Of a stretch of 64,000 nt of DNA, positions 1,621 to 62,573 are shown piece after piece (position 1 is the first letter of the stretch; every line of letters begins with the position of its first letter). Both the position numbers and the translations under genes were made by a program. The stretch comes from Haliotis cracherodii (lineage: Eukaryota): contig NW_027266308.1 of the NCBI RefSeq assembly GCF_022045235.1, forward strand, positions 22,506,001 to 22,570,000, in the 5' to 3' direction. The notes below the pieces were generated by a model that saw nothing but the letters and a program-made list of their open reading frames with translations, was not told the DNA's origin and did not search any database.

Positions 1621-1636
1621 CCTTGATAATTACCCA

Positions 1637-1907
1637 ACCCGTGAAGATTCCGTGGTAGAATAGGTCTTCAGCAACCCATGCTTGCCGTAAAAGGTGACTA
1701 TCCTTGTCGTAAAAGGCGACCAACGGGACCGGGTGGTCAGGCTCGGTGACTTGGTTGATGCATGTCATCGATCCCAATTGCGTGGATCGATGCTCATGAT
1801 GTCAATCACTGGATTGTCTAGTCCAGACTCGATTATTTACAGACCGCCGTCATATAGCTGGAATATTGCTGAGTGCGGCGTTAACCAAACCAAACAACCA
1901 ACCAAAC
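1637..1907 (+). mobile_element. SINE-like family A (non-tRNA head), full-length copy
   Basis: Starts ACCCGTGAAGAT, ends GCTGGAATATTGCTGAGTGCGGCGTTAA plus an A/C-rich microsatellite tail. At least 10 related copies in the window. Confidence 0.9.
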
Positions 1908-4339: not shown

Positions 4340-4967
4340 CCAATTGTTTTAAACTGTAATATTGGTTGTGACAACATTTAGAATACAGATTACTTCGTGA
4401 ATAGATATAGATCTGTATGTTTCAAAAAAATAAAACTAGGAGATGGTAGATCTACAAGTGGTTTCTCAAACATCATTTACAAAAACGTGTTGTAATGTCC
4501 AAATCACAAGGTTATCACAAAGTTAATTTGTTACGTTGTGGAATAACGTTACAATGTAACGTAATACTAACGTTGGCATAGAGAGACGCAATTACGTTCT
4601 GAAAATTTTAGTATTAATAATGAATATAAGAGATGGAAATTCAAATGCCGAACATATAGAAAGATAATGCATTACTGCCTTGGTATTCTGACAAATTCAG
4701 GTTGATTTTGATAATGCAGTTCTATTCCTTTATGACTATCAAGAAGCAAACAATAACGTTTCACCGACGTTTCAGAAACGTAGTTACAAAACGTCATGTG
4801 ATGTCCGATGCACAACGTTTTTACAGGGTAAATGTGCAACGTTGTTATAACGTTGTGAAATAACGTTGCACGTTGACGTTAAAATAACGTTGTGACAACG
4901 TTATATCACGACGTTACCAATCCACAACCTTACCACAACGTTGTGACAACGTCGTGTGTTAGCTGGG
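4340..4967. mobile_element. Non-autonomous DNA transposon end rich in ACAACGTT subterminal repeats
   Basis: Many ACAACGTT/AACGTTGT palindromic motifs, ending in GTCGTGTGTTAGCTGGG. The other terminus was not found; boundaries approximate. Confidence 0.45.
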
Positions 4968-13302: not shown

Positions 13303-13382
13303 CACATATGTATGACAAGGGTTTGATGTGGGAATAATGACCGAAGCAATTTTTAAATTGTGGGGTTTTTTTTTGTTTAACA

Positions 13383-13383
<1 letters not shown>

Positions 13384-13428
<45 letters not shown>
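13384..13428. repeat. (CA)n microsatellite inside a reverse-oriented family A SINE tail; duplicated at 16480-16524
   Basis: CA dinucleotide run flanked by TTTGTTTAACACC and CTATTCCAGCTATATGA. Confidence 0.9.
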
Positions 13429-13429
<1 letters not shown>

Positions 13430-14454
13430 ACTATTCCAGCTATATGATATCAGCCTGTAAATAACTGATTCTGAACTGGGCTGGGTTTTAACTGCTTTGA
13501 CATTATTATACATGCCAAATGTATCTTCATTTCTTCAACAAATGTCTTCCGTCTTGAGGTCAGCTGGGTTGAAAACATTTCAACAACAACAACATAAATT
13601 TGTTTTGCAGTCATAACGGTTGTAACTGGTATGAATAAATAATTTATAGTCCATAACTTTATTTGCAAACAAAATAACTAACCACTGTAACAATGACTTT
13701 GCTAGGGACACATTTGATCAGGATATTTTGAAGATTTCAGCAAATATGTTTAGGACATATTGGGTGACAAAAGGTTAATGTCCTAGAAACCATGATGTCA
13801 ACAAGACACCACCAGCAATTTGCAATTTGCGTTGACAATACTTACATCACACAACAGCAATAGATTAGTGTCGTGGCATTTACATATATCAACAACCATG
13901 CAGGGTGATTCGTATTGAATTTGATTAACATGGTTATGTCGAACCATTAACATGATAAAGATATTACAAATATTTTACATTAGATTTTACATATGTTAAT
14001 ATTTATGTCATTTCAGTTACCAGCAAAATTTACAAGAAAAGTAGTAGAAATGTACTTATGTTACCTTTCCCTAAAATAATTACCAGTTTCACAGTTTTAA
14101 AAACCTAGTCAGCACAAGTATTTTTCAAATACCTTTTGAAGCGTCCCTTTTCTCACATAGCCCTCTCTCATCCCGTCTGTTAGCTTCTCTTTTACCCCCT
14201 AACAATCGGTTTCTTAAGTCTTGGTCTTGGCATACAACCTGAAATTAAGTGACTACATGTAATTATTTACAAAACAATTAATTAACAAGTCATTTCGAAA
14301 TTGCTAATGCAATAAATGCAGGTATATATAAGTATTTCCTTAGTAACAGTAAGTTAGGGTTTTTTTTAGTTTCGTAAACTTTCGTAACTGATGTAAAATT
14401 ATTCAGCCTTACGGTGTAAATACTTGCTGACAAACAAATTGGCACTTTACTGTG

Positions 14455-14807
14455 AGACCGCCTCCGTGGTCTAATGGTAGAGAGTCCGCCCGGAGAGCGG
14501 AAGGTCCGGGGTTCGATCCCCGGCCACGTCCTACTTAAAGACGTTAAAAGATGGTACTTGTTGTTACCCTGTCTGGCGCTCGGCATGAAGGGGCTAAAAC
14601 AAGGACTGGTCGGCTCGGAGTCAGTATACTGTGTCTGGGTGGGTTATTCATGTTAAACTGCGGCATGGTATCTTAGTCGGCTAGCACTATAAATCGGCAT
14701 CAGTCCGGACTAGTACAAGCAGCCACACACACACGTGCATGCACGTCGCTATATAAGTGCAATAATCTTGGACGCGCCATTAAACCCAATTTCACCTCAC
14801 CTCACCT
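14455..14807 (+). mobile_element. tRNA-headed SINE family C with Meta/MESC-like central domain
   Basis: A box (GTGGTCTAATGG), B box (GGTTCGATCCC), central AAAGACGTTAAAAGATGGTACTTGTTGTTACCCTGTCTGGCGCTCGGCAT, (CACCT)n tail. The Meta/MESC assignment is from memory of the consensus. Confidence 0.85.
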
Positions 14808-16478
14808 AATCAGCACAAAGGTAGAAAACATAATTCTAGTATATCATATTGTATAAATATTTGGTTATCTGCATTCAAGAATTATTTTATATCTTATACA
14901 ACAAATAAGAAAAGAAAAGGTCATAATTGGTGTCCTTGACGCACCACATAAAACCTGTGACTGTCATACGTCTAAAGATAAACAGGATTTAAAATCACTG
15001 TGCATGTTTTTGAGTATGGGAAAAATATTACCTTTAACATTGCCAAACATAACAAAATGTTCTTGTTTTCGTCCATAAAATCAGCATAAAATCGCAGCGA
15101 ATATTTTGCCCCATATTTCTAACAATAGTATTTGTCTAAAATTACATGGTTCATCTCGACTGCTCTTTTCTGAATATGAACAATTACAGATAAAGGCCTT
15201 CCTATAGAATGAATACCTGTAGATAAAATAATGTTAAATAAAAATGTAAGCATTTCAAGACAATGTAAGGTGCATGCTTAAGGAATTTTATTGGTGAGTC
15301 CTAGACATAGAACAGAATTCGTGTTCTTTTTCACACTGAAAATCATTTTGAAAAACAGTTTTAAAATACTCTATACAAACTGGAATATAACATTTACCAG
15401 GTTGTGGATTTGGTTTACATTTGAAATATTTCGAAGAAAATTTAGTGGTTGTGGTTGTAATTGCCATATTGATACCACCGTATAAGTTTTCAACATTGAC
15501 CTGTTTTTTAGCACATAAGAAATTGTACATTGGAATATACTTAGTAGGCGTCTAGCCATAGATTCGCACAAGTTGCATTTAAAAAATAAGTATTAACAAC
15601 CTGATCCCGCACAGCAGCACTCCAGTCATTTGACAGCGGCCTGTAAACAAACCAAACAATCAAATGATATGGAATGCCACGCACCGGGCCTTTCTCGAAA
15701 GTTCAGTGGCCCCCAATATCAGCCCATCCGTGCACAGCGTGGACACGGTCACAACTGACAGTGTGAACCTCTTTGTGTAACATGGTTTATTTCTACTTGG
15801 AATGAGGGACTGTTGCGCGTCACTTTACCCTCAGACAGTGTTCCATCCACGGCGGTAAAAGGTGTTTTGGTCAATTGTCTTTGTTATTATTTTGTTACAA
15901 CAACTTTTGCTTTGAGTATATGGAATACATTAAAGTATGCATCATATCACATATGGTGTTACAACACTCTTTCCACTTTCATTAAAGATAAAAGACACAA
16001 ATGTCATATTATACGCATGACAATCCCATTTGTTTCACTCATTTCGTCTGCAATTGAATATGTTCTTAATTGAACATCAAAACAAAATATAAAGTATTTT
16101 AGCTTAACACCTGACCAACATGCAGCAAGTGTACTCATGTTTTTCAATATATATTCAGGACACATTCCAATACAACAATGCATATCACCAAGTGTAGACC
16201 ATTCATGCTTCGGTTTAGTTCATCATAAATGCCAGCAACACGTTACCCACACATGTTAATCAGGAATATATTTATCGGAAGGTCACAAGAGGTAGTTCGA
16301 GTATCCATAATCAGTGTCATATCACACATCCACACAACTAGATTGTCCACAATGTAACTGAAAAATTTAATTAAATTACCTTTCCATCCAAAATTATCCA
16401 TCCCAGTATGACAAGGGTTTGATGTGGGAATAATGACCGAAGCAATTTTTAAATTGTGGGGTTTTTTTTTGTTTAACA

Positions 16479-16525
<47 letters not shown>

Positions 16526-17550
16526 ACTATTCCAGCTATATGATATCAGCCTGTAAATAACTGATTCTGAACTGGGCTGGGTTTTAACTGCTTTGACATT
16601 ATTATACATGCCAAATGTATCTTCATTTCTTCAACAAATGTCTTCCGTCTTGAGGTCAGCTGGGTTGAAAACATTTCAACAACAACAACATAAATTTGTT
16701 TTGCAGTCATAACGGTTGTAACTGGTATGAATAAATAATTTATAGTCCATAACTTTATTTGCAAACAAAATAACTAACCACTGTAACAATGACTTTGCTA
16801 GGGACACATTTGATCAGGATATTTTGAAGATTTCAGCAAATATGTTTAGGACATATTGGGTGACAAAAGGTTAATGTCCTAGAAACCATGATGTCAACAA
16901 GACACCACCAGCAATTTGCAATTTGCGTTGACAATACTTACATCACACAACAGCAATAGATTAGTGTCGTGGCATTTACATATATCAACAACCATGCAGG
17001 GTGATTCGTATTGAATTTGATTAACATGGTTATGTCGAACCATTAACATGATAAAGATATTACAAATATTTTACATTAGATTTTACATATGTTAATATTT
17101 ATGTCATTTCAGTTACCAGCAAAATTTACAAGAAAAGTAGTAGAAATGTACTTATGTTACCTTTCCCTAAAATAATTACCAGTTTCACAGTTTTAAAAAC
17201 CTAGTCAGCACAAGTATTTTTCAAATACCTTTTGAAGCGTCCCTTTTCTCACATAGCCCTCTCTCATCCCGTCTGTTAGCTTCTCTTTTACCCCCTAACA
17301 ATCGGTTTCTTAAGTCTTGGTCTTGGCATACAACCTGAAATTAAGTGACTACATGTAATTATTTACAAAACAATTAATTAACAAGTCATTTCGAAATTGC
17401 TAATGCAATAAATGCAGGTATATATAAGTATTTCCTTAGTAACAGTAAGTTAGGGTTTTTTTTAGTTTCGTAAACTTTCGTAACTGATGTAAAATTATTC
17501 AGCCTTACGGTGTAAATACTTGCTGACAAACAAATTGGCACTTTACTGTG

Positions 17551-19783: not shown

Positions 19784-22700
19784 ATGGAGTCTACACCGCT
19801 ACTTGAAAACAAGGGAAAAGAAGACAAGTCAAAACTGGGAAATCTACTCAAGGCTAACGTTGTGTTTCTTGTTTTCCATTTGGCAATCAATATCCGCAAT
19901 CCACTGATAACACAATATCTTTACAAGAGGTACTCCGATGAAGAGTTCAATAACAGCACAGGATCTGCCAACTATCCTAACCAAAAATCCAAGTGTTACC
20001 TCAATGTGTCGGATCCAAGTTATATGTTACAGGAAAAGGTTCAAGAAAATACTTCGAACTGTCAAACAATACTGACAGCTATTGGAAGCTCCGGAGCAGT
20101 AATCAGCTGTATGTTCCTAGGAGCATATTCTGATTTTCTTGGTCGACGTTTTCTCTTTATAGTACCTTTAGTTGGAGAGGTTCTGAAGTTTTGGTTGTTG
20201 ACAGTTGTTATTTACTGGAATCTTGATCTGAGATACCTTTACATTGGCGAGGTGTTTGAGGGCATTTCAGGGGGATACAATGGTGTGATTCTAGCTAGTT
20301 ATGTATACACGGCTGACAACACACCACCTAAGAACTCACGGACAGTAGGGATCGCTGTGATAGACTTCACCACCTACCTAGCTTCTGCAGCTTCTCAGGT
20401 CATAACTGGATACTTCATCAAAGACCTAGGTTATCTCTACCCCTCTGTAACTACTGCCTCGCTAATGCTTCTCTCTCTAGTCCTTGTCGTTGTTCTTCTC
20501 CCTGAAACAATCAAAACAGATAGAAAATCTCAATACCCAACTCCAGTGAAAGCAGTGAAAAATGTCTTTGGATTCTACTTTTCAAAAGATTTTGGACCAA
20601 AGAGAAGCCTTTTCTGGCTCTCACTAGCATCATATTTTATATTATATTTCAGTCAGGGTGGTTTGTATGTTGTAGAATATCTTTTCCAACTAAACCTGCC
20701 TTTCTGTTGGGGCCCAGAGCTCATCGGCTATTTCAATATGGCATTGTCCCTTACAAAACAATTTCTAGGGATTCCAGTCATCAAACTCCTCCATCTGTGC
20801 ACCTCCGATCCAGGAATATGTATCATTACATCTATCATACAGGCAGGAGCCTATGTCCTACACGGCCTGGCCAACACAGACGTCTTGCTTTTCTCGTGTA
20901 AGTCATCATCGCAGAAGATAACCATAACCTAACGCAAACATTGTCATTGATATACCGTTCTACATATTCAGAACGAAAAGTACATGTGGACATTAATTAA
21001 TCTTTGCTTATGTTTTAAGACTATTGTTTGTTGTAGTTGTTCTGCCCAATGGTCTTGCAGCCCCTTTGTTGCCAGCACTGAGGGCTATCATGTCGCGGAT
21101 GGCTCCTGCTGAAATGCAGGGTGAGGATAAAGATAGATTTATCATGTCTTTGAATGGCATTTAGTTCAGTTGCCAACTCCTTCATTCTGAGGAACGCAAA
21201 GATTCAGAGTATATACTTACCCCTTCATCGGGTGAATGAATGCCAGGATGCAGAGAGTGTACATAAGTAATAAGGTAACAAAGGTGGGAACTTAACAATG
21301 GAAGCCAACAGTTGATTAGCGCTGATTGGTGATTTTCAATGGACAAATGGAATCATAGAGATAAATTAGAACTAATTTGTAATAAGCGCTGTCCATCCAT
21401 AATGTGATGTTTTGAATGGCCTACGGTGATAATAAAGTTGACAATCACATTTGTTGTGGCAATCACATTTCAAAGAAACAGCGAAGCCCTTTCGATAGTT
21501 ATTAGAGTCCATTTTACGATTCCGACTCTGTCATAATTATAAATAAAAGCGACAAAATCGTTTCCATATTCATAAGAAATCTCTGCCAAACAAAAGTCGA
21601 TTGTACGATTCCGACTATTACCACTTCCCTGAGATGATGTAAATACTATTAAGTCAAAGCATGTTCTAAGAGTTGTTAGTTTAGCATCTGTCCTGTCAGT
21701 CATGTGACTGCTACTATATTCTGTTCATACAATCGTAATCTGGACCACAGGCCGAAATATACTGATAATAAACACGTGTGTTTATCAATCAGTATCAAAT
21801 AGTGATGATACCAGGTGTTCACGAAATTGCCAGCAGTGTAACTTATTCAAATAGAAAGAAAACCTTTTTCCTATTCTAGATCATTACAATTTCAGATACA
21901 GGTAATTTGGGATTTAACATTATTATCCAAATATGGTGATGACGGCATGAAACAAAACTATACGTTTCACAACTACCCTGATCTTATAGCCAACCTGTGT
22001 AGGCCCTATTCATCGTGCTTACTTCCACAATGCAGCTTTGAATGTCTGTAACAGTAACCCAGCAAACGGAAACAGAAAATGGTTACTATATACAAGGAGA
22101 ATTAGAAGCAAGTGTACAGTTTCACAATGTGCACCGATTAGTGGAAGGGAAAGAAACTGTAAACGAATCGACATTCAGGTAAAGCATTTCAAAACATTTA
22201 TCCTAAATTAGTTCCTTTGTTCAGCAGTTGATTGCCTTTCCCAAATGCACGTACATGCAGAACAATGTTGAACGTTATTTGCCAGGGTCCCTGTTTGCCG
22301 GCATCGGACTTGTGAACATCATCTCATCAACTATAGGCATAACAGCTTTCAACGAGATGTATGATGCCACTGTGAAGATACTGCGTGGCTTCGCCTTTTT
22401 CGTCTGTGCGGGATTCCAACTGTTGTCTGCAGTTATCATAGTGTGAGTGCATGTTTTGTTGTTAAACGCCGCACTTGTTATTGACATCATGAGCATCGAT
22501 CTACGTAATTGGGAAACGATGACATGCATCAACCAAGTCAGCAAGCCTGACCATCCGAAACCGTTAGTCGCCTCTTACGACAAGCATAGTCGCCTTTTAC
22601 GGCAAGCATGGATCTTCACGGGTAGTGTGTGCATGCGTGGGTATTGAAAATTCAGGACGTCCATATGATGATCTCCCTATTTGTTTACTGTATTTCGTAT

Positions 22701-23265
22701 GTTTATACTTCACTAATGGGTTGTACTCATGTTGTATTGACGTGTACAATTTAAGTACATTTGGTATCAAAAGTAGATGGAAGAATGGTTAGTATGACTG
22801 GTCATTTCGCTTACAGAAGCTTTGTTTGTTTGTTTGTTTGTTCTTTAACGCCACATCCAGCAATAATCCATCTATATGATGTTTGTATGTAAATAATCAA
22901 GTCTGGACCAGACAATCCAATGATCCCGTTCGTCGCCTCTTACGACAAGTGTAGTCGCCTTTTACGGCATGTATGGGTTGCTGAAGACCTATTCTGACCC
23001 GGATCTTCACGGGTGGCTTACACAGGCAGTGCATTTAGCCATTGAGATACATGCAAAAGGTTAGCGATCACATTTGCTTCTTCGTTTACAGGAAACAGCT
23101 GTGATATTAAACAACTGCATATTCATGCATTACAGAGTGTTCCTGGTTACATCCCGCAGCGTCGTTGACACTGATACCTCCACTGTTGTTGTCATCAACG
23201 ATAACGACTGGAAGCCAGGCCCCATCATCCCCCAGGACAAGCCTATCACCGACACGACGATGTAG
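19784..23265 (+). CDS. SLC46-family (PCFT/SLC46A3-like) MFS transporter, paralogue 2; 4 coding exons, 494 aa
   Basis: Exons 19784-20897, 21037-21120, 22286-22442, 23136-23265 (1485 nt). Same intron positions and phases as paralogue 1; GAYSDFLGRR motif. Confidence 0.92.
22453..22623 (-). mobile_element. SINE-like family A, internally deleted copy
   Basis: Reverse complement of the family A consensus, ending at ...GATCTTCACGGGT. Confidence 0.85.
22821..23014 (-). mobile_element. SINE-like family A, internally deleted copy
   Basis: (TTTG)n tail; intact head ...GGGTTGCTGAAGACCTATTCTGACCCGGATCTTCACGGGT. Confidence 0.85.
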
Positions 23266-24418
23266 TGTCCTTGGTTGATGTGTTCGACTGTGGAATGAGG
23301 ATGATGCTGAGGCATTGCTCTTCCAATGAACCTGCGCGCCCAATACATGGACCCATTCATTTTGAAAACCCTTCTTCGGCGCCATAAATGCCGGGAACGT
23401 TTCATATATTCATAATTTATAGATATGTTTCGATTATCTAGACATTTCTTAATCAGGATGCGTATCAATGCGTATCGGTGCTGTCTGGAGTATTTGTTTA
23501 ACTATAGTTGTGGTAAGGGAGAGGTGATGTTGCAATCAGTAATTTATGTGTGCACGCATCGTGTGAAACATGAAACAGACAAAACTGACATGATCAATTT
23601 TGAAACAGGCAACTTAGAGGTCGGGTTTATCGAAAGTGCCGGGCAAAAGAAAATATACCGTTGTAAATAGGACTTGATAACAAAGGATTACAAACGTTTT
23701 CAAATCTTTACTCGGCTCAAAATAGTCGCATAAACTCTGCATTCGTAAGGTCCAAAACACAACTTTGATATCTGTATCAAATACATCATGAATAACTATT
23801 TCTCGTTTGTTTCATTTTGAGCCCCCATCAGACATGAGTCGGTATTTTCCCTTCCCCGGCAGTTTACATCCTTGCAATATCGGCCTTAATATTCAGAAGA
23901 TGACAATCAGAGGAGTCCCAACTTTTAGGTTCAGTAAAGAAAGATACTTAACATGACTCTTTATGTTATCGTCAGGTAAGAAAGCCTAATGTTATCCCTT
24001 TGGTTGCATTATCTATTTTTTCTACTATTTTTCTGGTCATTCTTATTATTAAATTGTTTTCTAACAAATATCAAACAGAATTTCAACATCTTTTCCTTTC
24101 TTGTGGATTTTCGGAACAAGTGCTAGTGCTTTATCAAAACAAGAGTTATTGAAATGTTACTAAATAACAAGTTTCAATTTTGTAAAAGTACAAAAACGAA
24201 ATCATTTGCTTATTAATGTATTAAAGTTTTAATGTCTATACACAATGTGTATTAACTTGTTTAGAGTGCACAGCGGAACTCTTTCTGCACCATTGAAAAT
24301 AAAGCATGTTCGGTCCAATAAAGTAAAACTGTTGAAGAAGTTACATGATTTCTACAAATAACGAATATTCCATGCTAGGATTGATTTAGTATAGTCTGTT
24401 TTTGGACATAACTTTGGT

Positions 24419-24662
24419 TTTGGTTTTGGTTTTGGTTTTACGCCGCACTCAGCAATATTACAGCTATATGACGGTGGTCTGTATATAATCGAGTCTGATT
24501 TATATCATGGGCATCGATCCACGCAATTGGGATCGATGACCTGCATCAGCCAAGTAAGCGAGCCTGACCACCCAATCCCTTTAGTCGCCGCTTACGCCAA
24601 GCATAGTCGCCTTCTCCGGCCAGCATGGGTTGCTGAAGACCTATTCTACCCCGGATCTTCAC
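24419..24662 (-). mobile_element. SINE-like family A copy
   Basis: (TTTTGG)n tail, consensus body, target-site duplication ACTTTGGT (24411-24418, 24661-24668). Confidence 0.88.
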
Positions 24663-25352: not shown

Positions 25353-26938
25353 ATAAATGCACACTTCTGTATGAAATATCACTGTCTTGTGAAGAAGAAA
25401 TACCATTGTCTTGTGAAGAAAACACAACCGGTATCTGAGGAATCCTTTATTTGATAGACTTGGTAATATTGATATTTGGCGAACAGTTCCTGGGACAAGA
25501 ACATCAATTCAAGGAAATATATTGATTGTTTAAATGTTTATAACAATATATACATTTTGTTACAAAATGCTAAACAATTGTACTGTTATTATGGTTGTGT
25601 TTCAGCAGAAAGAGTACATTGATATGCACATGATACATTAAGGTACACCTGTAACTAACACACACATGACCAACTGATCAGGAAGTCACTTCCTTTATAA
25701 AATACAGTGTATTATCACAAAAACTTTGATGCTGTTGATTAGCTAAAATATTACAAATTGACAGATATATTTATCTAGTTTTACAGTAACTAAAGACACT
25801 TTTCAATGATTGTTTACATATTACACATCTTCGTGATTTATTGATTGGTAATTGTTTAATTATTAATAAATGATATTAATTTGACAGTCATATGCCAGGA
25901 TAGGTGACTGAAAAAGGGAGAATTTAACCATGCGAATATCATACGACATCCTGACAATGACATGTAATCAATCGCTTCTTCCTGTTTTTAGATTATTTAT
26001 TTTCTAGGTTCTTGGTATCTAAGTTCTGGGCATCTTTTACTGGGGGTTTGTTAACCTTCAGTGTTCACGTGGTGCGTATTACAATTCTATATTACTTTTG
26101 TGCACATCCAATAGTTAAGAACCAGATAGTATGCCAAATATCGACGAATCTGTCAAGACTCTACCATGGCTCTTAGTTTCACATTTAATACACATAATAC
26201 CATATTTTCTTGTGTATATTGCACACATGATAGTGTAACACCAGAAATACCATGTCAATAACAGCATAACAGGAAATAAAAATGAAATTGTAAATCATCA
26301 CGTCAAGTGGTGTTTTATTGCAAATGTCACATGTTCATTGACAAAAATTGTTATCTCCTGTTTGTTTATCTGAAGCGTAATTATGTAGTTTTCAACTTCA
26401 TAGAAGCGACGATATCGTAATTTTCCCTAAATTTAACCAAGAATGAGTGATGCATTTTACTCAAGTGCGCATGATACACAAGTAAATACAGTAGGTATAC
26501 ATATCTTAACAATAATGTATAAACAATCAGGTCAACAGTCAACAAACAACACTGGCGCTGTTCCTCAGGGCCACAGAAGTGACAGGTACAGACTTCATTT
26601 GGGTCGAGACATTGTAAAACATTCAGACATGACAACTTCTTTGAGGCATTTAGACCTTAGAGTCGAAGTAAGGAAAAGATATATGAATGAACAACTTCTT
26701 TATTACAATTTGGAGTGACATTTCGGTGTAAGATCTAACAAAAGGATTATGACTGATTTGGGATATGATAAGTTGATTGTATGCAGGGGGTATGTAACAG
26801 CAGGGCTTTGCAAGGCTATTACATACCCTCTACATACCAACAAAGACCCTATTCAGTCATAATCCTTATATTTATACTACTGCCTTCACCTGTTAGGATG
26901 TTTACTTATATCACCCTTCTCTGTGTACATAACAGGCG

Positions 26939-27210
26939 ACCCGTGAAGATCCGGGGTAGAATAGATCTTCAGCAACCCATGCTTGCCGTAAAAGGCGACT
27001 ATGCTTGTCGTAAAAGGCGACTAATGGGATCGGGTGGTCAGGCTCGCTGACTTGGTTGATGCATGTCATCGTATCCCAACTGCGTGGATCGATGCTCATG
27101 ATGTCAATCACTGGATTGTCTGTTCCAGACTCGATTATTTACAGACCGCCGTAATATAGCTGGAATGTTGCTGAGTGCGGCGTTAAACAATAAACAAACC
27201 AACCAACCAA
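26939..27210 (+). mobile_element. SINE-like family A, full-length copy
   Basis: Complete consensus; target-site duplication ACA(T/C)AACAGGC on both sides. Confidence 0.92.
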
Positions 27211-27244
27211 CACAACAGGCTCCTCCACTCCAGTGTACCTACAT

Positions 27245-33957: not shown

Positions 33958-36900
33958 ATGGCGGCGATGGTGAGGTTGATGCGACAAATTGATGGTGTTA
34001 TAGAAGAATGCTATAACCGAAAAAAGTAAGTTTAATGTCAATTGTGTACGTGAAAATTTTATATTGTGGCAATGGGTTACTATGACCTGTCGGAATTTCA
34101 TTATTCATCGGTTTTTCTTATAAGGGCAAAAGGAAACATGGTTGTGATTGTTGTTGACTGTCTGAGTCTCTGAAGGGCCCTGAAAATGTGATATGAGAAC
34201 ACCTGCTACCAAATAAATACTAGCAACATAAGGAAAGGCTATAAAACTGCTATAGTGACTCAAAACATGCTTGCCTATACTATGCTTATCTAGTACAGTA
34301 GTTAAACAAACCCATGGACAACAACTTTCGACAATTTCTTTTCATTTGATTTTAATGTCGAGGTTTGTTGCACTTGCAGGATACCATCTTCCCGAGGCAA
34401 AGAGCATCCACTAGCCTTTTATCAAAGTATTGAACCTAGGCTATGATACAGGCTATTGGCCACGCTTGCCTCGGGAAGATGGCAGGATACATGTCAGACT
34501 ATATCCTGTTTAGTTAATTGTGTGAGTCCCTCAGACACGTTTTACAATTTATTTGATGTCAATGTTCATAATTATATAAATACGACATCGAAAACGTTTT
34601 TCCTGCTGTTAAAATATTCATCTAGTGAGTAGATACTTTGTCAATGGATTGTCCTTGCCAGACATAATAATGAAAATGGGATGTCACATGAATACAAAAC
34701 CCTGAGACCTCCTTCACAATATCACTGTATAATAATAATTTGAATAATTAATCAGTTGGAAAAGAATATAATGGGGGACTGTTAGAGTGCTTTTATACCC
34801 AACCATGGCTAAGAGTTAAAAAAAACCCATTCTGACAGCTTTCACAAACTCTCATGCTAGGGCAATGGTATCTGACCAATGTTAACTTTCTGAAATGATC
34901 CTGAGGTGGAAAAGGGAAAAATATATAAAACAATGATGGATGCTGAATATTTAATAAAATTGTACAGCTCTGGTAATTTTGAACATATACCAAACCTGTA
35001 TTCAAATGAACGAAACCTGTACCCCTGAAGATCCCGGTTAGAATTGATCTTCAGCAACCCGTGCTAGAGGCAAGGGCGGTCGAGAAGCCTTTTGATTAAA
35101 GCTTACGCCCGTCACGCTGAAGACCCAAGTTCGATTCCCAACAGAGGTACAATGTGTGAAGCCCATTTGTGGTGTCCCCCACCGTGATATTGCTGGAATA
35201 TTGCTAAAAGCGGCATAAAACCATACTCACTCATTAGAGGCAGCTAACAGGATCAGGTGGTCAGGCTCAGTGAATCAGTTGATGCATGTCTGGAATATTG
35301 TTGAGTGTCACGTTAAACAACAAACAAACAGAACATGTGAGTGTCCCTACTTGTCTATTATACTTTATAGGTGAGCATCCCTCTTCTTTATTCACATTCC
35401 CTACAAATTACGGGCATGTGTTGTATTATGTACATGTTGCATATTCATTGACTTTACTGACAATAAATCTATACTGTGAATGTTCATGAATTTGATTACA
35501 TGCTTTTTTTAATAGTGAGGCTGAAGAGCAGAGAGAGGCTGAATATGTTGCAGCTGTTAAGGTTCAAGCCTGGTTTAGAGGAACACGATCTCGGAGCTAT
35601 CTGGGGTAATTTGTGGAGGCCATATGACATAAACATTTACTTTACAACCATTTGGGTAAACCATGGTGAAATGGGCAGATATTTTATTTTGTGACACCAT
35701 TATTTTGATCATACTGCCTTTTACTACAAACTGTTATATTTTTTCATGGTATGTGGTAGAAAAGTTTCTAAATTAGCATACTAAAGTATCTAGAAGTTTG
35801 ACAGTACATTTATCATGTTTATGGGTTAGGGTCAAGAAACAAAAACTTATTTCAGATTCTATTTTGGAATGATTTTTGTTCAAAGTTTATTCAAATTAGT
35901 TTAGGGGGCACAGGTGGAACAGTCGAATCCCCGGTTTGCCCTGATTATGTTTCTAGGTTTGTCAGCACCATACCTGTGCTGGTGGGTTTCGCCAAAGTGG
36001 TAAACATCTGAGACCTGCATCACTTCAGGATTTCTTCCCACATTAAGCTGACACGCCATGATATAACTGGAAAAAAGTTAAAAGTGGCGTTAAACTCAAC
36101 TCTGTCACTCACTCAAATTAGTTTAAATGAAATTCACTGCAATTACAAAACAATCTTATCTATTCTGATTAGGATGCAATCAGAAGAGAGATTTCTCTAT
36201 TCAACAATCTATTGGAACAATATTTCGATTAAATATGGATGCTAATTGATATGATAGATGTAATATCAGACATATTATGAATTATGCAATCTGTTCCCTG
36301 ACTTAACAATTGTAGGTTCCTGAACAAATGTGCAACATCTGTTCAAAAAACATGGAGGGGCTACCTTGGACGTCAGTACTACCGGCAGCTTGTCAAGGTG
36401 ATTATGTGTGTTGATCGTCTTAAGGTCTTATAAAGTTGACCACAATACTCAATTACGTCTTTTTGAAGAACTTTATACTTTACAGGGTTGTTTTTTTCCC
36501 AAGATAACATTTTGAAGAGTTTTAACATGCTATGAATATAAAAGTTTCTACTGTAAATGTATTTTGTGTTCTCAGAACAGTGTATTCATCATGAAGCTGA
36601 ATCACTACAACGCAATGGCCACCAAGGTGATTACTCTATACATTGGTTTCTTATCAAGATACTTCTTTGAATTGTTAAAAAAAACATCATCACAACTATG
36701 TCTTTTACTAAAAAAGTCAGTTTTACCTTACCTGATGCAACACCTATAGCACTGTGTAGCGTCAGGTCCGTATAAAAACATTGCATTTAATCAGAAACGT
36801 TCATTTTTCTATCTAAAAAGGTAGTATGTTATCAATAATAATAATTTTCCATGAGTATTCTAAACCTGTATAGATTGCCCGCAACTTTGGCCACAAGTCA

Positions 36901-45832: not shown

Positions 45833-46835
45833 CACACTTGAACATATTCTTGTGCTAAGGTATGGGTATCATTGTTTTACAGTGTGTTACAGCAGGTCAC
45901 TTATGTACCTGCAATAGCTTTCTTGAATAAAACTTTCTGCCTGTTTATATGCCAAGGATTTATCTAGACATGATCCGAGGATAATATTCAGCCCCAAAAT
46001 GTTCAAGATTGGAACAATGATTTTCCCAGTTGTAAGTGATGTTATGGCTTTGTCAGAGACAACCTGTATTACACAGATAGGACCAATACAGAGGAAGTGA
46101 CATTGATAATTAGTTTTACATTGAGTGTATGATAAATACTTCGAGATCAAAGAAATTAATAAAAATAAAATGTATAAATATATCCAAATTATGAAGAAAA
46201 TAACATTTAAATAACTTAGTTTAAATTTGTGACAACTCCCTGTATGCACCCCACTTTATCTTTTAAACATATATGTCAAATAGTTCCATACCCAGAAATA
46301 ATGTATAGAACTGGTACTTTAAAAAATATATTCTTCTTTCATTACAGGGTGGAAACATTGTTTTGATCATTTTAATATCAGTTCATATTGAAATGAAACC
46401 AAAAAACACAAAGAAAATATGATATGAAATTTATTTCAAAACCCATAATGCACCATGACACAATATTGGACGGAATGCATGTGACAACAGAATAATGTGT
46501 GTTCTATCTGTCTATACAATGTACTATGCTGTGTATCAGAACCAGATCTGATAACAACCAAACTTAACATCACAGCATCATCCTGATAACAGTTCAGTTT
46601 GTTATGGCACCGTCATTTATAGCAATTCGGCTAGAATATTGACATGACAGACATGGAGAAACTGTAAAAGAAGTCAAACAATATGAGAGAGGGTCATGAA
46701 AATTGGCCATGCATTTGAAAAAGAAATGATGAACATTTGGGGAAGGTAATCTTTACTGGCAGCTTCACTCCAGCCCAATCCTGAACAAAGGAACTTGATG
46801 CAATGTCAGCAATATTACAGCAGTCTGTGTTTGCG

Positions 46836-47029
46836 TGTTTGTTTGTTGTTTAACGCCGCACTCAGCAATATTCCAGCTATATGACGGCAGTCTGTAAATA
46901 CTCGAGTCTGGACCAGACAATCCAGTAATTGACGTCATGAGCATCGATCCTCGCAATTTGGATACAATGACATGCATCAACCAAGTCAGCGAGCCTGACC
47001 ACCCGATCCCGTTAGTCGCCTCTTACGAC
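46836..47029 (-). mobile_element. SINE-like family A, 5'-truncated
   Basis: Consensus body up to GTCGCCTCTTACGAC. Confidence 0.88.
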
Positions 47030-47410: not shown

Positions 47411-50400
47411 TCAGACAACTTCATTAATAGATTCGTGTTCCTTGAATTCCTCTTTCTCCACGTCGGAGATCATCTCTGACGTCACCTCAGTGAACAGTCG
47501 ATCCCAGTCCCATGGGCGGTCCTCCTACAAACATTATTTACAGATCGCCGTCATATAGGGGAAAATTGCTAATGACACAAACAAACATAATAATAGGACA
47601 ATAATAGTCCAGTTATATGGCACTTTTCCCTGATGGATATCACATGCTCAAAGCGCACAGAGAACTACTACCTCGGTCAATTGATCAGCGTGCAGTCCAT
47701 TCTCTACTCCTTGGGGAGTATATAATCCATGCTGCCTGTTTGGCGCTAGAAGGTTAAACTACCATCAGATCTCAGTGCTCACTACAGCTACACAAAGATC
47801 TGAGGACATCTAATTACAGGTCACGTCAGAACGCCCTTTGGTGAGCTTTACTAGTTTAAGCTGTAAAGTTCTTGATTCAAAAGAAAATTCTGTAATGTCT
47901 TATAGATGGCTGAGCTATGGACAGTCTCTTCTGCTTCAAATGATTGTCCAATTGAAGCGATAAATTGATCATAATGTCATACATCCCGAAACTGTCATTC
48001 TTTGCCTCACGTTAACATTTTCGATGTTGCATGATTTGAAAACATATTCAGACTTTCAAGTTTGCGAACTCAGTAAGCAAAGCTCTGATTGGTCGGACGA
48101 AAGTTTGATCTGATGTGACCTGTGAGCACTAAGATCTGATTTTAATGAGATTGACATTCAATGGAATTGTTAACAATATTCACACAAACAAGTAGGTTGG
48201 TTTTGATGCCTAACATGTTCTATTGGAGACTCACCTCTATTAAGTCTTGTTCTGGTGAAATAGCCTTTGTTAATAATTTGAGATCTATCTCATTATCCTG
48301 AAACACAAACCATAAACAAGGATAGATAACAACATACAAATACCACCATGTACTTCCTTCCCCAAAACATACTTCAAGACCTTGACCTTAATAAAGACCT
48401 CAATCAACAACAATTACCAAAATTTATGATTGTAGAACTACAATACATTTGTAAAAGTATTACTTGTCCCCAACTTGATTCAAATAAAGCTGTTTTCTAT
48501 ACAAAAAATCCATAATCCCCCATTTATATATTAATGGGCGGTTCACTGAACCATTGTATTCTTGGGCAGTTTTTATAGCTACTTACCTGAGTAAAATTAT
48601 GACACAATTAATAAATAGAAATAACTGTCAGTTATAACAGTCCATAGGATATTAGTGTGTTGTCAGTATTTAGCAGAAACTATTTATATATCACTCCTGA
48701 CTGCAAATTTTGGTACATGGCTTTCTTTGTTGACAATTTAAACCGATAACTATGTATCCAGGTGAGCTACAGTGCTGCAGCACAATTTGTATTTCTAATA
48801 TATGATTTTAACAAGACAGAAACATACTCAGCTAATCACTTCTATTTAGCAATTGAATGCCTGGGAATGTTAACAGCTGAAACCTCCAGCCAAAGGCACT
48901 GTTTCCAAAGAGATTCCTAAACACAATACCGGTACATTCTGAAAACAAATCTATAAACATCCTAGATAATGATGTTAGCTCAAAAACAAAAGTCCATACC
49001 AGTGTGAGGAATGCTGCTTGTCGCAGGAGATCATTGTCCAGCTCTCTGTATGTGGCCACTCGGTTGACCGAGACACTGTGGGAGTCAGTAACAATCAGTG
49101 GTCAGATGGTGTGGTCAAACAAGCAAACAATTCATATCAAATCCGTACAAAACATGAAATAGTTTTTAACTTGGTCTTCAAATAAATATAGATCAGTTAA
49201 CATTTCTTTATTGTTCCTTCTCAAAAGAAACTACTTGTAAGTAAATCATAGTTTTAAAATATATTGTTACCATTCACCAAACATATCAGTTAAACATTAA
49301 AGACTAGTATTTGTCTTGACAAGAATTTCAACAATTTTTTGGCCATCACCAAACGCTGATGTTTGTTTATAATAAGAAACAAGTTGTATGTGCATGCAAG
49401 GTCCAGTTCCACACAGTGATCTTAGATATACCGAATGTCGTAAGTCTTCGTTAGAGTATGGGAGTTACAGTCATCCTAGACAGGGGTGTTCAATCAGTAT
49501 GTCTGACTTGCCCGACCCATGAGATAAAGTGCCGGGCAAGTGGGAAAATATAATTTAGTGCCCCTGGGCAAGTATGAAAATTGGAAATATTAACCTTGTA
49601 ACTAGAAGATACATCATGTTTTTGTCTACTGCAGATGAAGTACCTGACTAGTCATTTTTCTATTCTCTTTAAAATGTGACCTTGAAGGAATATCACCTAT
49701 CACATTACTGCTTGTCGCCCAAGCTTGAAAAGAATTAGGTTTCTGAAGCCAAAGTGGGGAGGCAAGTCTGCGACGGGTAGGTCCTTAGATGTAGTAATAC
49801 AGGATAAGCATACAAATGTATAAATATTTAGATTTTACTAAATGTTTTACTTATCCTGCAGTACTCCTTAATGCATCTGCATCAGACGGTATGGACAAGG
49901 GTATACCTTCAGATGTCCAAGAAACAGCCTCAATAACTCACACCCAAAAGGAGGCACATGTTTGTCAATTAACCGTAAGGTGGAAAGAGCATTAAAACAC
50001 CATTACTGTGCACCCCTTTGACTCCTTGATCATTCTCGACTTGCAGGATCCATACCTGCATATACCTATCCATAATGCAGGATAAGTAAAATAATTAATA
50101 TTTTCTTCTTTTCTCTGATTTAGCAGGGCATGCTGAGAATCAGACAGGACAGTATAAGTTTGAAATTTACTTGCCCTTGGGCAAGTTTCAAATTGTGGTA
50201 TTTTAACACCCCTGTCTTAGCGCTGAGATCGTTTTAGTTTGTTTCTTTGCTGAAACACATTGCTCAGCAATATTCCAGCTATATGACGGCGATAACAAAC
50301 CGAGACAATCCAGTGATTGATATCATGAGCATCTATCCATGCAATTGGGGTACGATGACATGAATCAACCAAGTCAGTGAGCCTGACCACCTGATCAAGT

Positions 50401-53400
50401 TAGTCGCCTCTTACGACAAGTGTGGGTTGCTGAAGACCTATTCTACCACGGATCTTCACGGGTAGCACAAACATCGCTGTATGGAACAGGACTCTGGTGT
50501 GTAGATAACTGACTTGGGGGCTACAGCCACTTTAGTGCTCATGTCCTCTTCTTGCTGGTCCTCTAGCTCCGGGATCACAGGGATGTCTGCAGCGAGACCA
50601 CACTCATAATACAGCAATATCACATTCAACACTTCTCTCCACTAGTAGCCAGCTACAGGTCACTAGTCATGGGCCAGGAAGATTTGTCTTAAGGCTGTAT
50701 CATATTTTGCTGCTTCCCTCCCCTCATCCCCCTCAATACACATAAATACATGGACATTTGTTCATGGCCCCCACAAATACATGTAAGGCTAAGTAAAATA
50801 AAGAATTGGTTCGGGCGGGTGTTTTTTAAGGGTTGGGGGTTGTTCAAACTAGTATGTAACCAAATAAACAGTTGTGTTCAATCAACTTGGAAAAGGGCCT
50901 CCCTACATAAACATATTCCTTGATGAGTAAAATACTGGAATACGGTCTTTGACTACCGTTATACTTAGAGTATGTAAGGATTTCGTTGTTGTTTTTAAAT
51001 GGAAATACAAACGAAACGTGCAGCACACTTTATGAAGATGCGGACAGTGCCTGAGAACCAAGACTGGTTTTTTTAGCCTTACATATAGTTAATGTTCATT
51101 AAGACGTTCCTTATGTGTAAGAAATTAACCACAAAAACCAAAGGATCCTTGAAATAACCCTTATGTTACAAACCTTAGGTTTAGGGGGTCCCTAGATTCA
51201 GTTACTATGGCAGCAAAACTCAAGGACCCAGGACCCCCTTTAAATTCTAAAAATGCATTAGTATTGACACATTCAATTACATAGTATTCCCAGCATACCT
51301 TGATCTGAATCAGATTCTTGATCTGGGCTCCTTGGTCGAAGTCTCTCACTGTAACACAGCAAACACACACTGACAACATGGACCACTAGGAACACTACCT
51401 GACTCTTGTGGCTCCTATTGGTATCATGGCTGCAGTTATCGCGTACTGATAGAGTTGAAGGATTTGTTACATTGTGAGACATACTTGAAAATAGTCACAA
51501 TAATCAATATATAAATAATTAGCATGTTCAGACACACCATAACACAGAGCTATAGATAAGCTTTTGGATTTTGGGTATTTTACCCGGGGGTTTGATATTG
51601 ATTGCGTATCCACAAGTTTCAGAAGGAATTCAATTATTTTTTTTCCACCTGTTTCTTGACATTTGGGTATTTAACTTAAAACCTGTTTCGTAACAATCAC
51701 TGTAAATCCTTTAAGACTACATGAATAGTAGTATACCTGTCTGCATCTGCTTGCGGCAACCTCTCTGGGAAGCCATTTTGTGTTCACAAAACCTAGCATT
51801 GTAAGAGGTGAGGTGAAATTGGGTTTAACATCGTGTCCAAGATTATTGCACTTATATAGCGACGTGCATGCACATGTTTGCGTGTGGTTGCTTGTACTAG
51901 TCCGGACTGATGCCAATTTCATAGTGCTAGCTCACTGAGATACCATAATGCAGTTTAACATGAATACCCCACTCAGACACGGTATACTGAACCTGAGCCG
52001 ACCAGTCCTTGTTTTAGCCCCTTAATGCCAAGCACAAAACAGGGTAACAACAAGTACCATCTTTTAACATCTTTTGGTATCTTTTAGGTCGAGCCCCAGA
52101 CCTTCCGCTCTCTGGGCGGACGCTCTACTACTAAACCACGGAGGGGGTCTAGCATTGTAAGAAAGGTGCTATTGTTTTAATTACCAATCAGCGACTGATA
52201 AAGATACAACATGTACACTGACTAGGCACGATGTGCTTTTCAATTGGCATCCATCAGTATGTTTGTAGTAGAAGCTTTGCCAAATTTAACTTCGGAAAGT
52301 GAATATGGCAACCGGATGATACAGAATCATTTTGATACGCTAAGATTTTACTTGTCTGCATAGTTCAGATTATTTAATGCGTATGTCACGCAAATATACA
52401 GCTTATCTCAAGCTCTGATAACATATTTTCAACAGTATTGTCGTCTATAATTTTTCTAACCTGTCAGATGCTACATGAGCCACCTGTGGTTATAGCTATA
52501 GTGTTTGTTAGTCAACTGGAACAACGGGTTAAATACATTCGTGGCATTGAAATGTAAAACAAAACAAACCTCGTGGCAAAGGGTGAGTTTTGAATGATAA
52601 CAAAGAGACAACAATAGAAAGACTGAAAGCATGACCACATCACATGATCGTCTTGAATCAATAAAAAAAAATATGAAAACAATTGATATCATCCATGATA
52701 TCACTACTAGAACACTTCTAGGCAGAATAAGTTCTTTCAGAGACCAAAAGACACGAAATGCAAAAAATGTTGCTCAGAGTAAATGAATATTAAAAATGGA
52801 GTATGGTACGACTGGTATGATATTCAGTACCTGATCGTTGTTGGTTTGTTGTTTAACGTCACATTCAGACAGCAGTCTGTAAATAATCGAATCTGGACCA
52901 GACAATCCAGTGATTGATATCATGAGCATCGATCCACACAATTGAGATACGACAACATGCATCAACCAAGTCAGTGAGCCAGACCACCCGATCCTGTTTG
53001 TCACCTCTTAAGACAAGCACAGTCACCTTTTATGGCAAGCATGGGTTGCTGAAGACCTATTCAGTATTCTACCCTGGATCTTCATGGGGTTCAGTACCTG
53101 AAGCTATTTAGAAGATAACCAACGAGCTACAAGGAATTACAGATTATTTGCCCCCGAGGGAATAAATGGTGGATGTCCTCATCCTTTGTTGAGTGATTTA
53201 CAGCATTCATTCACGAGGGACAGATAATCCGTAATTCTAAGTAGGTTATTCTAAATAATACTCATTGACAATTAAAGAGAAAATGAAGAAAAAATGTACC
53301 TAACAACCCTAACAGAGAAACTACACTGCAGGCAGCATATTGTCCTGAAGACGTAATTAATTTGTGACATCATGAGCAATGGAGGACATCATATCATATT

Positions 53401-60066: not shown

Positions 60067-62573
60067 ATGTTGATGTCGAGAATTGTTAAAAACCAAAGTT
60101 TGGCCAACCGATTACGAACTTCTGTGTTGGTTTGCAGACCAGAGATTAAACGTGAATTTTTCTCGATGTCATGTTTAGGAAACCAGACCCAAAGATGCCA
60201 CGCGCGTTTGCTGTTCAACAGTTTACAACGGTTGGGTGCAAAATGTGACTTTCTTCCCAAGACCTCGCCAAGGACGATCATATCGAGACATAAGTCTTAT
60301 AAAACCAAACCAAAGACCACGTTACCCTTCGAAGTCGATGCCAATGTGTCGAAAGATGTGTTGGTGTATTCATTCAGTGGGAGTCGCTTCTACAAGTTGA
60401 TCACATTGTTTGGGGCTTCCCAGTTCATATTTTGGATGTATTTGTCAATATTTTCATTCAGCAGTTTGAAAGACATTTCACAAGAGGACGAGGACAAACA
60501 GTTAGGCATTAAAAGAGATGATAGTCTGGTTTTTAAGGTACTGATGCCGGTGAAAGGCTATTACAAAACAGGACTTGGCTTTCTCTTCCTGAGCGTAGGT
60601 GTGTATTCAGATGGTACAGCGTTAGCATGAACACGTGTTTGATTATCTGCTGCCAGTGGGTTCGAATCCAAGAGTTGTCCCATTTATGATCCTTACTTTG
60701 TCAGCACCAGACCAGGGGTTGTGTGTTTCAGTTAAGTTGTAAATGTAACATGGTTTATCTGTTAACTGACATTCAGTGAACTTGATTGTAGAATTTAGTC
60801 CCAAATCAGTTGTAAATACTTTATGATAGTGGCTTCATGTATGTGTGTGGAACATGTTGAATATTTGGCATGAAGCCGAGATGAGTCGACCATAATTATC
60901 ACCTGGCAAATAGATGATTTACCCATCTGTGTCAACATGGTCAACAAAATGTCTAATTATCAATGAAAAAATATTTTTTTATGACTGAAGGGGGAAAAGA
61001 TTGTTGTTGTTACTTTTTTTTACATTTTTTGACATCTCCCCTGAAACCACAAGGTGTATGAAGTTTAAACTTTGGGTATGTGGCACCAGTTATGTGGTCT
61101 CTTAAAAGTGCACACAGAATTCACATCTGATTTTAAACATGGCCACTGTGACAGCCATTTTGGAAATGCAACTTTTGGCTTTTACTCTGTTACTTCTGTG
61201 CATGTGTCATAAAATGTCATATTCAGCAGGTTTGTGCTATGCCAAACAAATTTCATATCTTGCTGTGTATTGTGATATTTGACACACCTTGAGGAACTAT
61301 TATGGCTGCCAATAGCATGGGTACCCAGGTAGGGCCGGGTAATAGGGTGTTGGGGACCCAGATAGTAAATATGAACTTAAATTATCCCAGCCGTAGACGT
61401 TTCTAGCTCTATTGTCTAATAATCTGGGTCACAGAATTAGTTACATTGAACTGTAACTGGAGGGTAAAAATGAAAAAAAGACAAAAGCAAGAAATATTGC
61501 AGATGTACAGTGTTCCCTGAAATACAGATTTAACCAGCATAGCTTAGATCATGTAGATTCCTATAAGTATGAATGGTATCTGGTATCAGCTTGTTTATGG
61601 CAGGTTAATGCTGCGTTAATGTTAAATGTCAGGTAAATCCCTGTATATTCCTGTTGAAGAACCAGAAATACTCAAGTATTCATATTTTATAAGGGTGTTA
61701 ATGATTGGAAAGTATATGTCAACTCAAAAGTATCAAGATAAATATAGATTAATAAAAAAATTATTTATTCTGTATCTGTATAGATTCAAATTTCCCGTTT
61801 AGACCTGCAATTATATAATGCTAAATATGAATTATGACTGGTGAATTAGGGGTGCATTATTTTCAGCTTTTAAGAGTTCCTTTCTTCACCGTGTATATCT
61901 TTAAGTGGAAAGCTGCAGAATCAAGGAAGTACTTGCTTGATAAAGGTACCTAGTTCTAGCAGATTTGCCTCCCATAAAGATCTGGGAAGAATAGGTCTTC
62001 AGCAACCCTTGCTTGCCGTAAAAGGCAACTCTGCTTGTCGTAAGAGGCAACTAACGGGATCAGGTGGTCAGACTCGATGACTCGGTTAATGCATGTCATC
62101 ATATCCCAATTGCGTGGATCGATGTTCATGAAGGCAATCACTGGATTGTCTGGTCCAGATTCAATTATTTACAGACCGCCATCATATAGCATTGAAAAAG
62201 TAAAGTTAAAATGGATAAGTCAACTTGGTCTTCCTGATCCCTGTCTGTTGATAAGTTGTGATCATTGGTTTCAGGTTCAATGGTGCTGTTCATCTGTTGG
62301 ATCTACCCACAGCGTGCTGTGAACCAACTCTGGCTGTTGAAGGGAGGCAAGGGAGTACAGATATCCACCTACACTTGGTTTGGAAACACACGCTCCTTCT
62401 CATCGCCAATCAACAATCTCTCCTGCCTGCAGTCACGCACAAGCTCTTCATCACAGATTTCAATGAAAGTCAAACACCATTGGTTCCATTTTCTCTTGGA
62501 CAAAAAAGGAATCTTTCACAACACAGAGCTTTTTGATCATGCTGTTGGACTTCAGAGGAATCTAAAGAAATAA
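60067..62573 (+). CDS. TMEM223: Transmembrane protein 223 (mitochondrial inner membrane); 2 exons, 276 aa
   Basis: Exons 60067-60598 and 62275-62573 (831 nt, phase 1). Basic N-terminal presequence-like region, V.KDVLVY...RFYKL..LFGASQFIFW, LWLLKGG..V.ISTY, FLLDKKGIF.NTELFD. The start could be 60067 or 60073. Confidence 0.88.
61969..62190 (+). mobile_element. SINE-like family A, 3' end missing
   Basis: Diverged consensus from the head to CCGCCATCATATAGC. Confidence 0.85.

Follow-up and report, generated by a model that had tools for sequence, protein, structure and literature searches.

The head of an abundant SINE of Haliotis cracherodii is predicted, because of covariation and partner-swap outcomes, to fold within its first ~90 nt into a 5′ H-type pseudoknot (S1 of 4–6 bp, a one-base L1, S2 of 7 bp and an A-rich L3) and, downstream of it, a stem that contains an inner loop and has a small hairpin as its cap. 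The same motif lies in the 5′ UTR of Nimb/I-type LINEs and downstream of the last ORF of small viruses. As the best explanation of the sharp 5′ end of the SINE we propose that the pseudoknot and stem-loop may act as a cap substitute, which would halt 5′-to-3′ exonucleases and thereby set this end; we give this reading slightly less than an even chance. The broader view is possible but leans towards the improbable: the head would represent a class of exoribonuclease-blocking RNA not described so far, exchanged between RNA viruses and the retrotransposons of invertebrates. Host nucleases would carve the 5′ end of a SINE of very high copy number, which would then need neither promoter nor ribozyme, out of read-through transcripts.

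The window, that is the whole 64,000-nt stretch of DNA analysed, was said in the first-pass annotation to contain at least ten copies of the repeat. All of these belong to one family, as indicated by blastn and by the covariance model R1, which recovered 10/10 at E ≤ 3e-5, two of the ten having been in its training set. The repeat unit is ~250 nt followed by an (AAC/AACC)n tail. The named copy (1636..1907, forward strand) is a full-length LP-type SINE of ~250 nt with an (AACC)n-type tail, and its first base is A, most copies having G. The best-preserved copy (26938..27209, forward) begins with G and is flanked by target-site duplications (TSDs) at 26927–26937 and 27210–27220 (11 nt, one mismatch). 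On the reverse strand, the copy at 52830..53091 has a TSD of 12 nt without mismatch and a short duplicated stretch in its loop, that at 22824..23015 has a body deletion and a TSD, that at 22450..22624 has internal deletions that removed the loop and the second half of S2, that at 24413..24662 lacks the first bases, that at 46829..47029 is 5′-truncated and starts at the small hairpin P4, and that at 50263..50464 has a single hairpin module. The forward copy at 61968..62190 is diverged and tail-less, and that at 35020..35330 is interrupted at ~35067–35236, within the hairpin module, by a tRNA-type SINE that has a B box and whose tail is similar. TSDs and microsatellite tails had both been attributed to the copies in general: TSDs are clear at 26939, 53090, 23014 and 22623 and weak or absent in the other six, including 1637, and tails are found in 8/10, the one at 50463 being degenerate and the copy at 61969 having none. 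A 22-nt module, described earlier as duplicated in most copies, is indeed double in 7/10 and single at 50463; the other two copies are the truncated one (47029) and the one split by the nested SINE (35021).

Genome-wide, a 35-base stretch of the head has 6,126 exact matches (1.18 Gb), against 0 for the reversed control, and ten heads in 64 kb suggest that far more diverged copies exist. TSDs were found in 55/104 tail-bearing genome copies examined. The common ACCC start noted earlier is seen in six window copies, but the first base of the family lies one position before it; this base is G in 97/128 genome copies, tandem-internal copies removed, and loose ends of contigs pile up at 26938 in 4/4 sequencing runs. 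The reported lack of Pol III A and B boxes in the head is borne out, since, by the box consensus used, the best 5′ A-box has three mismatches and the best B-like match (two mismatches) lies at +149. ARAGORN run on the window placed 0 tRNA genes on SINE copies, and Rfam gave no match on any window copy at E ≤ 5; a tRNA-, 5S- or snRNA-type head with 5′ Pol III boxes was thus found by none of Rfam, ARAGORN and the box scan. Further tail-like matches in the window lie at 5314, 12994, 13422–13477, 16518–16573, 39749 and 44940–44980. Identical Rfam and blast matches 3,096 bases apart (~13350–14520 and ~16450–17620) point to a local duplication of ~3.1 kb. Positions 4775–4956 hold a palindromic repeat with many ACAACGTT units and weak microRNA-like Rfam matches, and 25187–25352 are 166 N.

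The repeat is likely an LP-SINE, and hence known in kind. LP-SINEs have been described from Haliotis (255 bp), oysters, Littorina and scallops (Matetovici et al. 2016, PMC4758252); according to that paper Nimb-17_LMi, I-3_DR and RTE-9_CPB have 5′ ends that match the first ~70 bases of these SINEs, the head was put forward as a promoter, to be tested, and the partner LINE was called unidentified. Like Hdi_LP and Hmi_LP of that account, the SINE studied here is ~255 bp long, has TSDs and a microsatellite (tandem-repeat) tail, and carries a ~70-nt head that is not derived from tRNA and is shared with LINEs. This head can be aligned with a motif in the 5′ UTR of APE-RT-RNase H LINEs, both those of this genome and the one in locus L450. 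The assignment is based on length, architecture and the head shared with LINEs, the published Haliotis consensus (Fig. 3A) being compared by description only; the Chlamys (scallop) head (Suppl. Fig. S2, PMC4758252) has by eye the same layout and small-hairpin letters. Structure, viral copies and ribozyme do not figure in the available text of that account and come from the present analysis. In the available text of a 2024 survey of bivalve SINEs (PMC11481361) the words 'ribozyme' and 'pseudoknot' have 0 occurrences. The letters of the motif are absent from the main texts searched, and our search, which left aside subscription journals, Repbase, Dfam, figures and bioRxiv supplements, found no paper tying the LP head to structure, viruses or exonuclease-resistant RNAs (xrRNAs). 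The viral copies, the LINE 5′ UTR copies behind an HDV-like ribozyme and the fixed 6-nt start described below were not found in the literature searched.

In the 1636 copy all parts of the head lie on the forward strand. The 5′ strand of pseudoknot stem S1, CCCG (1638..1641), has its predicted partner on the 5′ side of the large loop, the 3′ strand of S1 (1651–1655) lying inside S2 with one substitution in this copy. A conserved UG (1642..1643), 6 nt downstream of the beginning of the element, would form the one-base loop L1 and the first pair of S2 (1643..1669, pairing 1643–1649 with 1663–1669), which also encloses a conserved AGAAUA loop (1657–1662). Stem P3 begins with ACCCAU (1674..1679; predicted partner 1724–1728). 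It is followed by a first, imperfect 22-nt hairpin module (1680..1701), a family-specific duplication, and by a second one (1702..1728) that comprises hairpin P4 (1706–1720), a CUAA-type linker, which reads CCAA in this copy, and the 3′ strand of P3. Downstream lie a body (1729..1847) without tRNA or Rfam match and without a clear match to LINE UTRs, and a tail (1848..1886) that resembles the 3′ end of ribozyme-headed Nimb/I-type LINEs of the same genome.

The fold was examined in an alignment of 24 rows, made of two window copies and 22 loci picked from 38 clusters; old degenerate copies from the same genome, four further clusters and clusters without a recognisable 5′ half were left out. In these rows, which were hand-picked and whose covariation statistics ignore kinship, 88.7% of the cells of S1, S2 and P4 are paired, against 74.2% after shuffling (0/500 shuffles as good) and 35–54% in slid controls. 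Two-sided changes occur at 10/16 pairs overall, at 2/4 in S1 and at 7/7 in S2. The long hairpin drawn by eye in the first-pass annotation stands, and the small hairpin P4 is upheld as well. Partner-swap analysis supports pairing of the 5′ CCCG with a CGGG of the loop (only 7/2000 swaps as good) and of the downstream CCC with the GGG after CUAA (4/2000). The two other pairings drawn earlier fared worse: the closing helix CCCGU/ACGGG was equalled by 748/2000 swaps across families, although it is the minimum-energy fold of the single sequence, and the proposed pseudoknot between loop GGGU and downstream ACCC by 457/2000. Single-sequence folding is unremarkable, with z from −0.5 (1636) to −1.9 and −1.8 for the 26938 copy. 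From animals to viruses the loop letters of the alignment are highly conserved, in part because the search patterns themselves imposed AGAAT and the small hairpin; L390 varies there. Families that share a start differ by more than 10 nt in how far AGAAT lies from it.

The motif was present in the 5′ UTR of 19/20 intact Nimb/I-type LINEs, ~400–550 nt before ORF1; these 20 were fetched from 113 matches to the L397 endonuclease. We infer the Nimb/I-type label from domain order and from PMC4758252. The source of this query, L397/L450, comes from a prokaryote assembly and is an entire LINE, comprising ORF1 and an APE-RT-RNase H ORF2 of 1,238 aa; in L450 neither a ribozyme-like match upstream of the motif nor a TSD was found. 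In the LINEs the TSDs stop 62 nt upstream of the conserved G-UG. There stands the first G of an HDV-like sequence of 56 nt, in which, by eye, a 7-bp P1 with an opening G.U, a 3-bp P3, a 7-nt loop, GG, a tiny P4, CUAA and P2 can be traced. Three HDV-type Rfam models match this unit at L433:2446-2502, the best with E 0.0014 and 29 bits, below the gathering score of 44 bits, and we regard it as a putative HDV-like ribozyme. Among 48 distinct LINE heads, 47 begin at the HDV-like unit, one is fused to another copy and 0 begin at the motif, which sits 56 nt inside the LINE RNA, behind this separate unit. The earlier proposal that the head is a LINE-derived RNA setting the 5′ end therefore survives in part: the head is LINE-related, conserved, structured, outside Rfam and marks a 5′ end, but the retention of the upstream HDV-like part in the LINEs speaks against self-cleavage by the head itself. 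The LINE head has 537 exact matches genome-wide. Loci L430–L449 and L451–L480 are young, diverse Nimb/I-type LINEs (intact ORF2 of 1,227–1,257 aa) with a near-identical 5′ HDV-like ribozyme of minimal P4 despite diverged ORFs, and ribozyme-headed LINEs cluster and nest in one another (C2 ~21 Mb, C6 ~4.4 Mb).

The 3′ end of these LINEs aligns with the SINE tail (26938 copy) with a local score of 46 (0/500 shuffles as good, best shuffle 45.5), the other Nimb family reaching 19.5. Because of this alignment the ribozyme-headed Nimb/I-type group, which has ORF1, an ORF2 with APE endonuclease, RT and RNase H, a microsatellite tail and the tail shared with the SINE, is the likely partner of the SINE on sequence grounds; since its microsatellite, (CTCA)n, is unlike that of the SINE, the exact partner may be a sister family. 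The other Nimb-type family, which emerged from an RNase H profile search and has a (GTAA)n tail and a different head, was dropped as a partner and used as a control. It begins with CAGTT, which we take to be initiator-like, and has the motif in 0/30 heads. Its copies (L061–L073, L481–L510) have tandem 5′ monomers and the (GTAA)n tail, and several hold an antisense fragment of the SINE tail within the 5′ UTR. A search of the same genome for the head pattern with a different continuation returned only SINE variants.

In IMG/VR the motif occurs in six distinct small-virus sequences: L113/L145 (RdRP_3 and nodavirus-type capsid), L115 (RdRP_3), L390 (RdRP_1), L518 (RdRP_4), L112/L114 (Peptidase A21 capsid, tetravirus-type) and L111 (no Pfam match, two tandem motif copies). 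RdRp matches are thus present in 4/6 and a tetravirus-type capsid in one, and the motif-bearing virus records include tombus/noda-like and toti-like ones. In 6/6 sequences AGAATA lies 25–119 nt past the last stop codon, with at most 177 nt left to the end of the record. Its position after the last ORF of RNA viruses indicates that the motif acts there as RNA. L517 and L518, both outside the R1 training set, scored 64 and 72 bits, the other 84/86 loci reaching at most 18 bits. Matches from a loose gapped viral scan were rejected as mostly chance (45/50 and 14/16), R1 scores being low, and protein-based searches for related viruses returned only these records again. A complete motif also separates two ORFs in a DNA virus record of 212 kb (L517:1970-2061), with a gene for an NAD-dependent DNA ligase nearby.

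A small-hairpin pattern placed the motif in at least 119 metagenome stretches, at the head of many different short elements; ~27 of the 119 matches listed keep the 3′ half without a recognisable 5′ half of the pseudoknot. L171, L187, L228, L264, L276 and their kin are of this kind, with AGAAT, P3 and P4 kept, and in L171-type elements the central pair of P3 is swapped, a compensatory change. The motif was also found in seven stretches of prokaryote assemblies (L392–L398) that resemble animal DNA; these are animal-type retroelements headed by the motif, including one whole LINE inside a bivalve-symbiont scaffold, and are likely host contamination. Tandem heads were seen in one element (L183) and one virus (L111). 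Tandem arrays of pieces of the SINE head occur in L288–L292, L297–L298, L303–L311, L316 and L080:8538-9119, with ~43- or 50-nt units that correspond to the pseudoknot half only and 22-nt units that correspond to the hairpin module.

What has to be explained is a start of unusual regularity. Conservation begins exactly 6 nt before the UG in three unrelated short-element families, with TSDs abutting; in a fourth, a metagenome family of 10 copies, the start lies ~5 nt before it. The first base is mostly G in the SINE described here, A in 21/28 copies of one metagenome family and G in 24/27 of another. In every family with a defined start the terminal motif opens with a purine, and the corresponding base of internal motifs is mostly a pyrimidine, a difference that fits a transcription start. 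The absence of LINE heads beginning at the motif argues against either cutting or transcription start at its edge. One G separates the TSD from ACCCG in 25/55 TSD-bearing SINE copies. That this G was copied from a cap is unlikely, as there is no G excess at −7 in the metagenome families (6/28, 2/27) and the CAGTT family has G at −1 in just 2/30; the SINE family taken alone would still allow a cap-derived G. An apparent excess of T just before ACCCG proved an artefact of tandem arrays.

An exonuclease roadblock would be expected to place the start at a constant distance from a fold, as is seen here in elements that have no promoter boxes and no ribozyme. The SINE, a non-autonomous retroelement likely copied by Nimb/I-type LINEs and presumably devoid of a promoter or ribozyme of its own, would be transcribed within host read-through RNA. 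Xrn1 or Xrn2 would trim this RNA until the fold stops the enzyme, and reverse transcription of the protected SINE RNA would begin at its LINE-like tail. In viruses such a halt would yield a 3′ non-coding RNA, and in LINEs the fold would be a second safeguard for the uncapped end that the HDV-like ribozyme leaves. Consistent with an exonuclease block are the covarying stems, the ruler-like 6-nt start and a link to uncapped RNA, the motif standing behind an HDV-like unit in the LINEs and missing from the initiator-like CAGTT family. The motif also lies near the start of viral 3′ UTRs, where known xrRNAs sit; these depend on pseudoknots (PMC12397905), and coremin xrRNA has been modelled as a small H-type pseudoknot with a second hairpin (PMC10321173). 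Ordinary frameshift pseudoknots of the H type, however, fail to stall Xrn1, also when a hairpin is added to them (PMC10321173). Further points against an exonuclease block are the purine pattern at terminal motifs, the LINE copies, none of which begins at the motif, the metagenome family with 5 nt, the metagenome matches without the 5′ half of the pseudoknot and the intergenic copy in a large DNA virus (L517). Moreover, the SINE starts just 1–2 nt from S1, and an overhang of 1–2 nt is short for an exonuclease halt. The 5′-OH end left by ribozyme cutting should already resist Xrn1, so that the motif in LINEs would serve something else or be a mere back-up, which favours a role in translation.

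Such a role, in which the motif would serve uncapped LINE and viral RNAs as a cap-independent enhancer by binding either the ribosome or an initiation factor, is in our estimate rather unlikely. It would bring SINE RNA to ribosomes that make LINE ORF2 protein, the 5′ end resulting from a bound protein or a separate start signal. It would account for the viral 3′ UTR position, for the location in LINEs directly behind the ribozyme and upstream of ORF1, and for loop letters conserved from animals to viruses, as expected of a site for a host factor, although this conservation is partly imposed by the search patterns. Ribozyme-cut retroelement RNAs are, moreover, described as requiring cap-free translation (PMC6765202, PMC13725137). 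Enhancement of translation alone, however, leaves the exact 6-nt start in three SINE families unexplained, and SINEs are not translated. An exonuclease block and a translation enhancer can coexist as a cap substitute.

We consider it rather improbable that the head is an internal promoter, perhaps with an additional RNA role, from which transcription begins at the first purine. This proposal was based on the position of the head and on analogy with the 77-mer of L1Tc, and named LINEs are reported to begin with the motif (PMC4758252); the purine of terminal, but mostly not of internal, copies agrees with it. It is difficult to reconcile with the presence of the motif in RNA viruses, which have no DNA stage, with covarying stems and with a start-to-AGAAT spacing that varies among same-start families. 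The 0/48 LINE heads that begin at the motif also count against it, though a C-rich context could shift the start upstream.

That the LINE reverse transcriptase binds to the head when the 5′ end is handled at integration, and that viruses later took over this site for replication or stability, seems to us very doubtful. The R2 protein binds a 5′ pseudoknot of R2 RNA (PMC6765202) and the motif recurs on many short elements, but it is reported on both Nimb and RTE elements (PMC4758252), is missing from another Nimb family and is carried by viruses that have no LINE ORF2 protein. Least probable of all is a new self-cleaving ribozyme cutting right before the first base of the head: a purine first base flush with S1, as in HDV-like ribozymes, and CUAA after a small hairpin, as in HDV J4/2, are outweighed by the 56 nt, including a ribozyme of their own, that nearly all LINE heads retain upstream, by the tandem heads in L183 and L111, by C-C-A-A in place of C-U-A-A in most LINEs, by the separation of viral genomes from their 3′ ends that cutting would entail, and by a helix order unlike HDV with no Rfam ribozyme match on SINE copies.

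Transcription of LP-SINEs and their sharp 5′ end have been a question since 2016, which is now turned into simple assays: the occurrence in viruses shows that the head functions at the RNA level, in LINEs it is seen apart from the ribozyme presumed to do the cutting, and the fold derived from covariation is amenable to a one-day assay. If the block to Xrn1 is true, it would be a third way to define the 5′ end of a retroelement, beside promoters and ribozymes, and a cellular xrRNA; if recruitment of translation is true, LINEs and viruses would have a new cap-independent enhancer in common. Either way, a mobile RNA module absent from Rfam 15 is found on SINE 5′ ends, in ribozyme-headed LINEs and in viral 3′ UTRs. 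Smaller gains are the HDV-like start of Nimb-type LINEs and the likely partner LINE group.

Among known systems, HDV-like ribozymes stand at the 5′ ends of R2, RTE and L1Tc LINEs (PMC6765202), and the LINEs of this genome likewise begin exactly at G1; Nimb is not among the six ribozyme-bearing clades in PMC5786205. In the LINEs described here this ribozyme forms a 56-nt unit of its own ahead of the motif. The SINE lacks it, and the SINE head, as had been noted before, does not fit HDV: its covarying helices are ordered differently, it has no P3/L3 loop and it finds no Rfam match. Like viral xrRNAs of classes 1–3 and coremin (PMC12397905, PMC10321173), the motif is a compact, in our case predicted, pseudoknot near the start of a viral 3′ UTR, sometimes in tandem. 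It differs from known xrRNAs in sequence and helix order, has no three-way junction, and the first strand of its pseudoknot is the 5′ end. Rfam gave no match to xrRNA class 1, 2, 3 or coremin in the window and 8 viral and LINE loci, a result that presumes that Rfam covers these classes, and no xrRNA on a retroelement is reported in the literature searched. The 3′ cap-independent translation enhancers of Tombusviridae (BTE, PTE) lie in the 3′ UTR of uncapped viruses and have conserved loop letters; the motif shares this position and the conservation of loop letters, and is set apart from BTE and PTE by Rfam only, which returned no match. Pr77 of L1Tc/ingi resembles the motif as a short 5′ module common to otherwise unrelated LINEs and their short derivatives, but Pr77 itself is both a promoter and an HDV-like ribozyme, whereas the motif does not fit the HDV fold.
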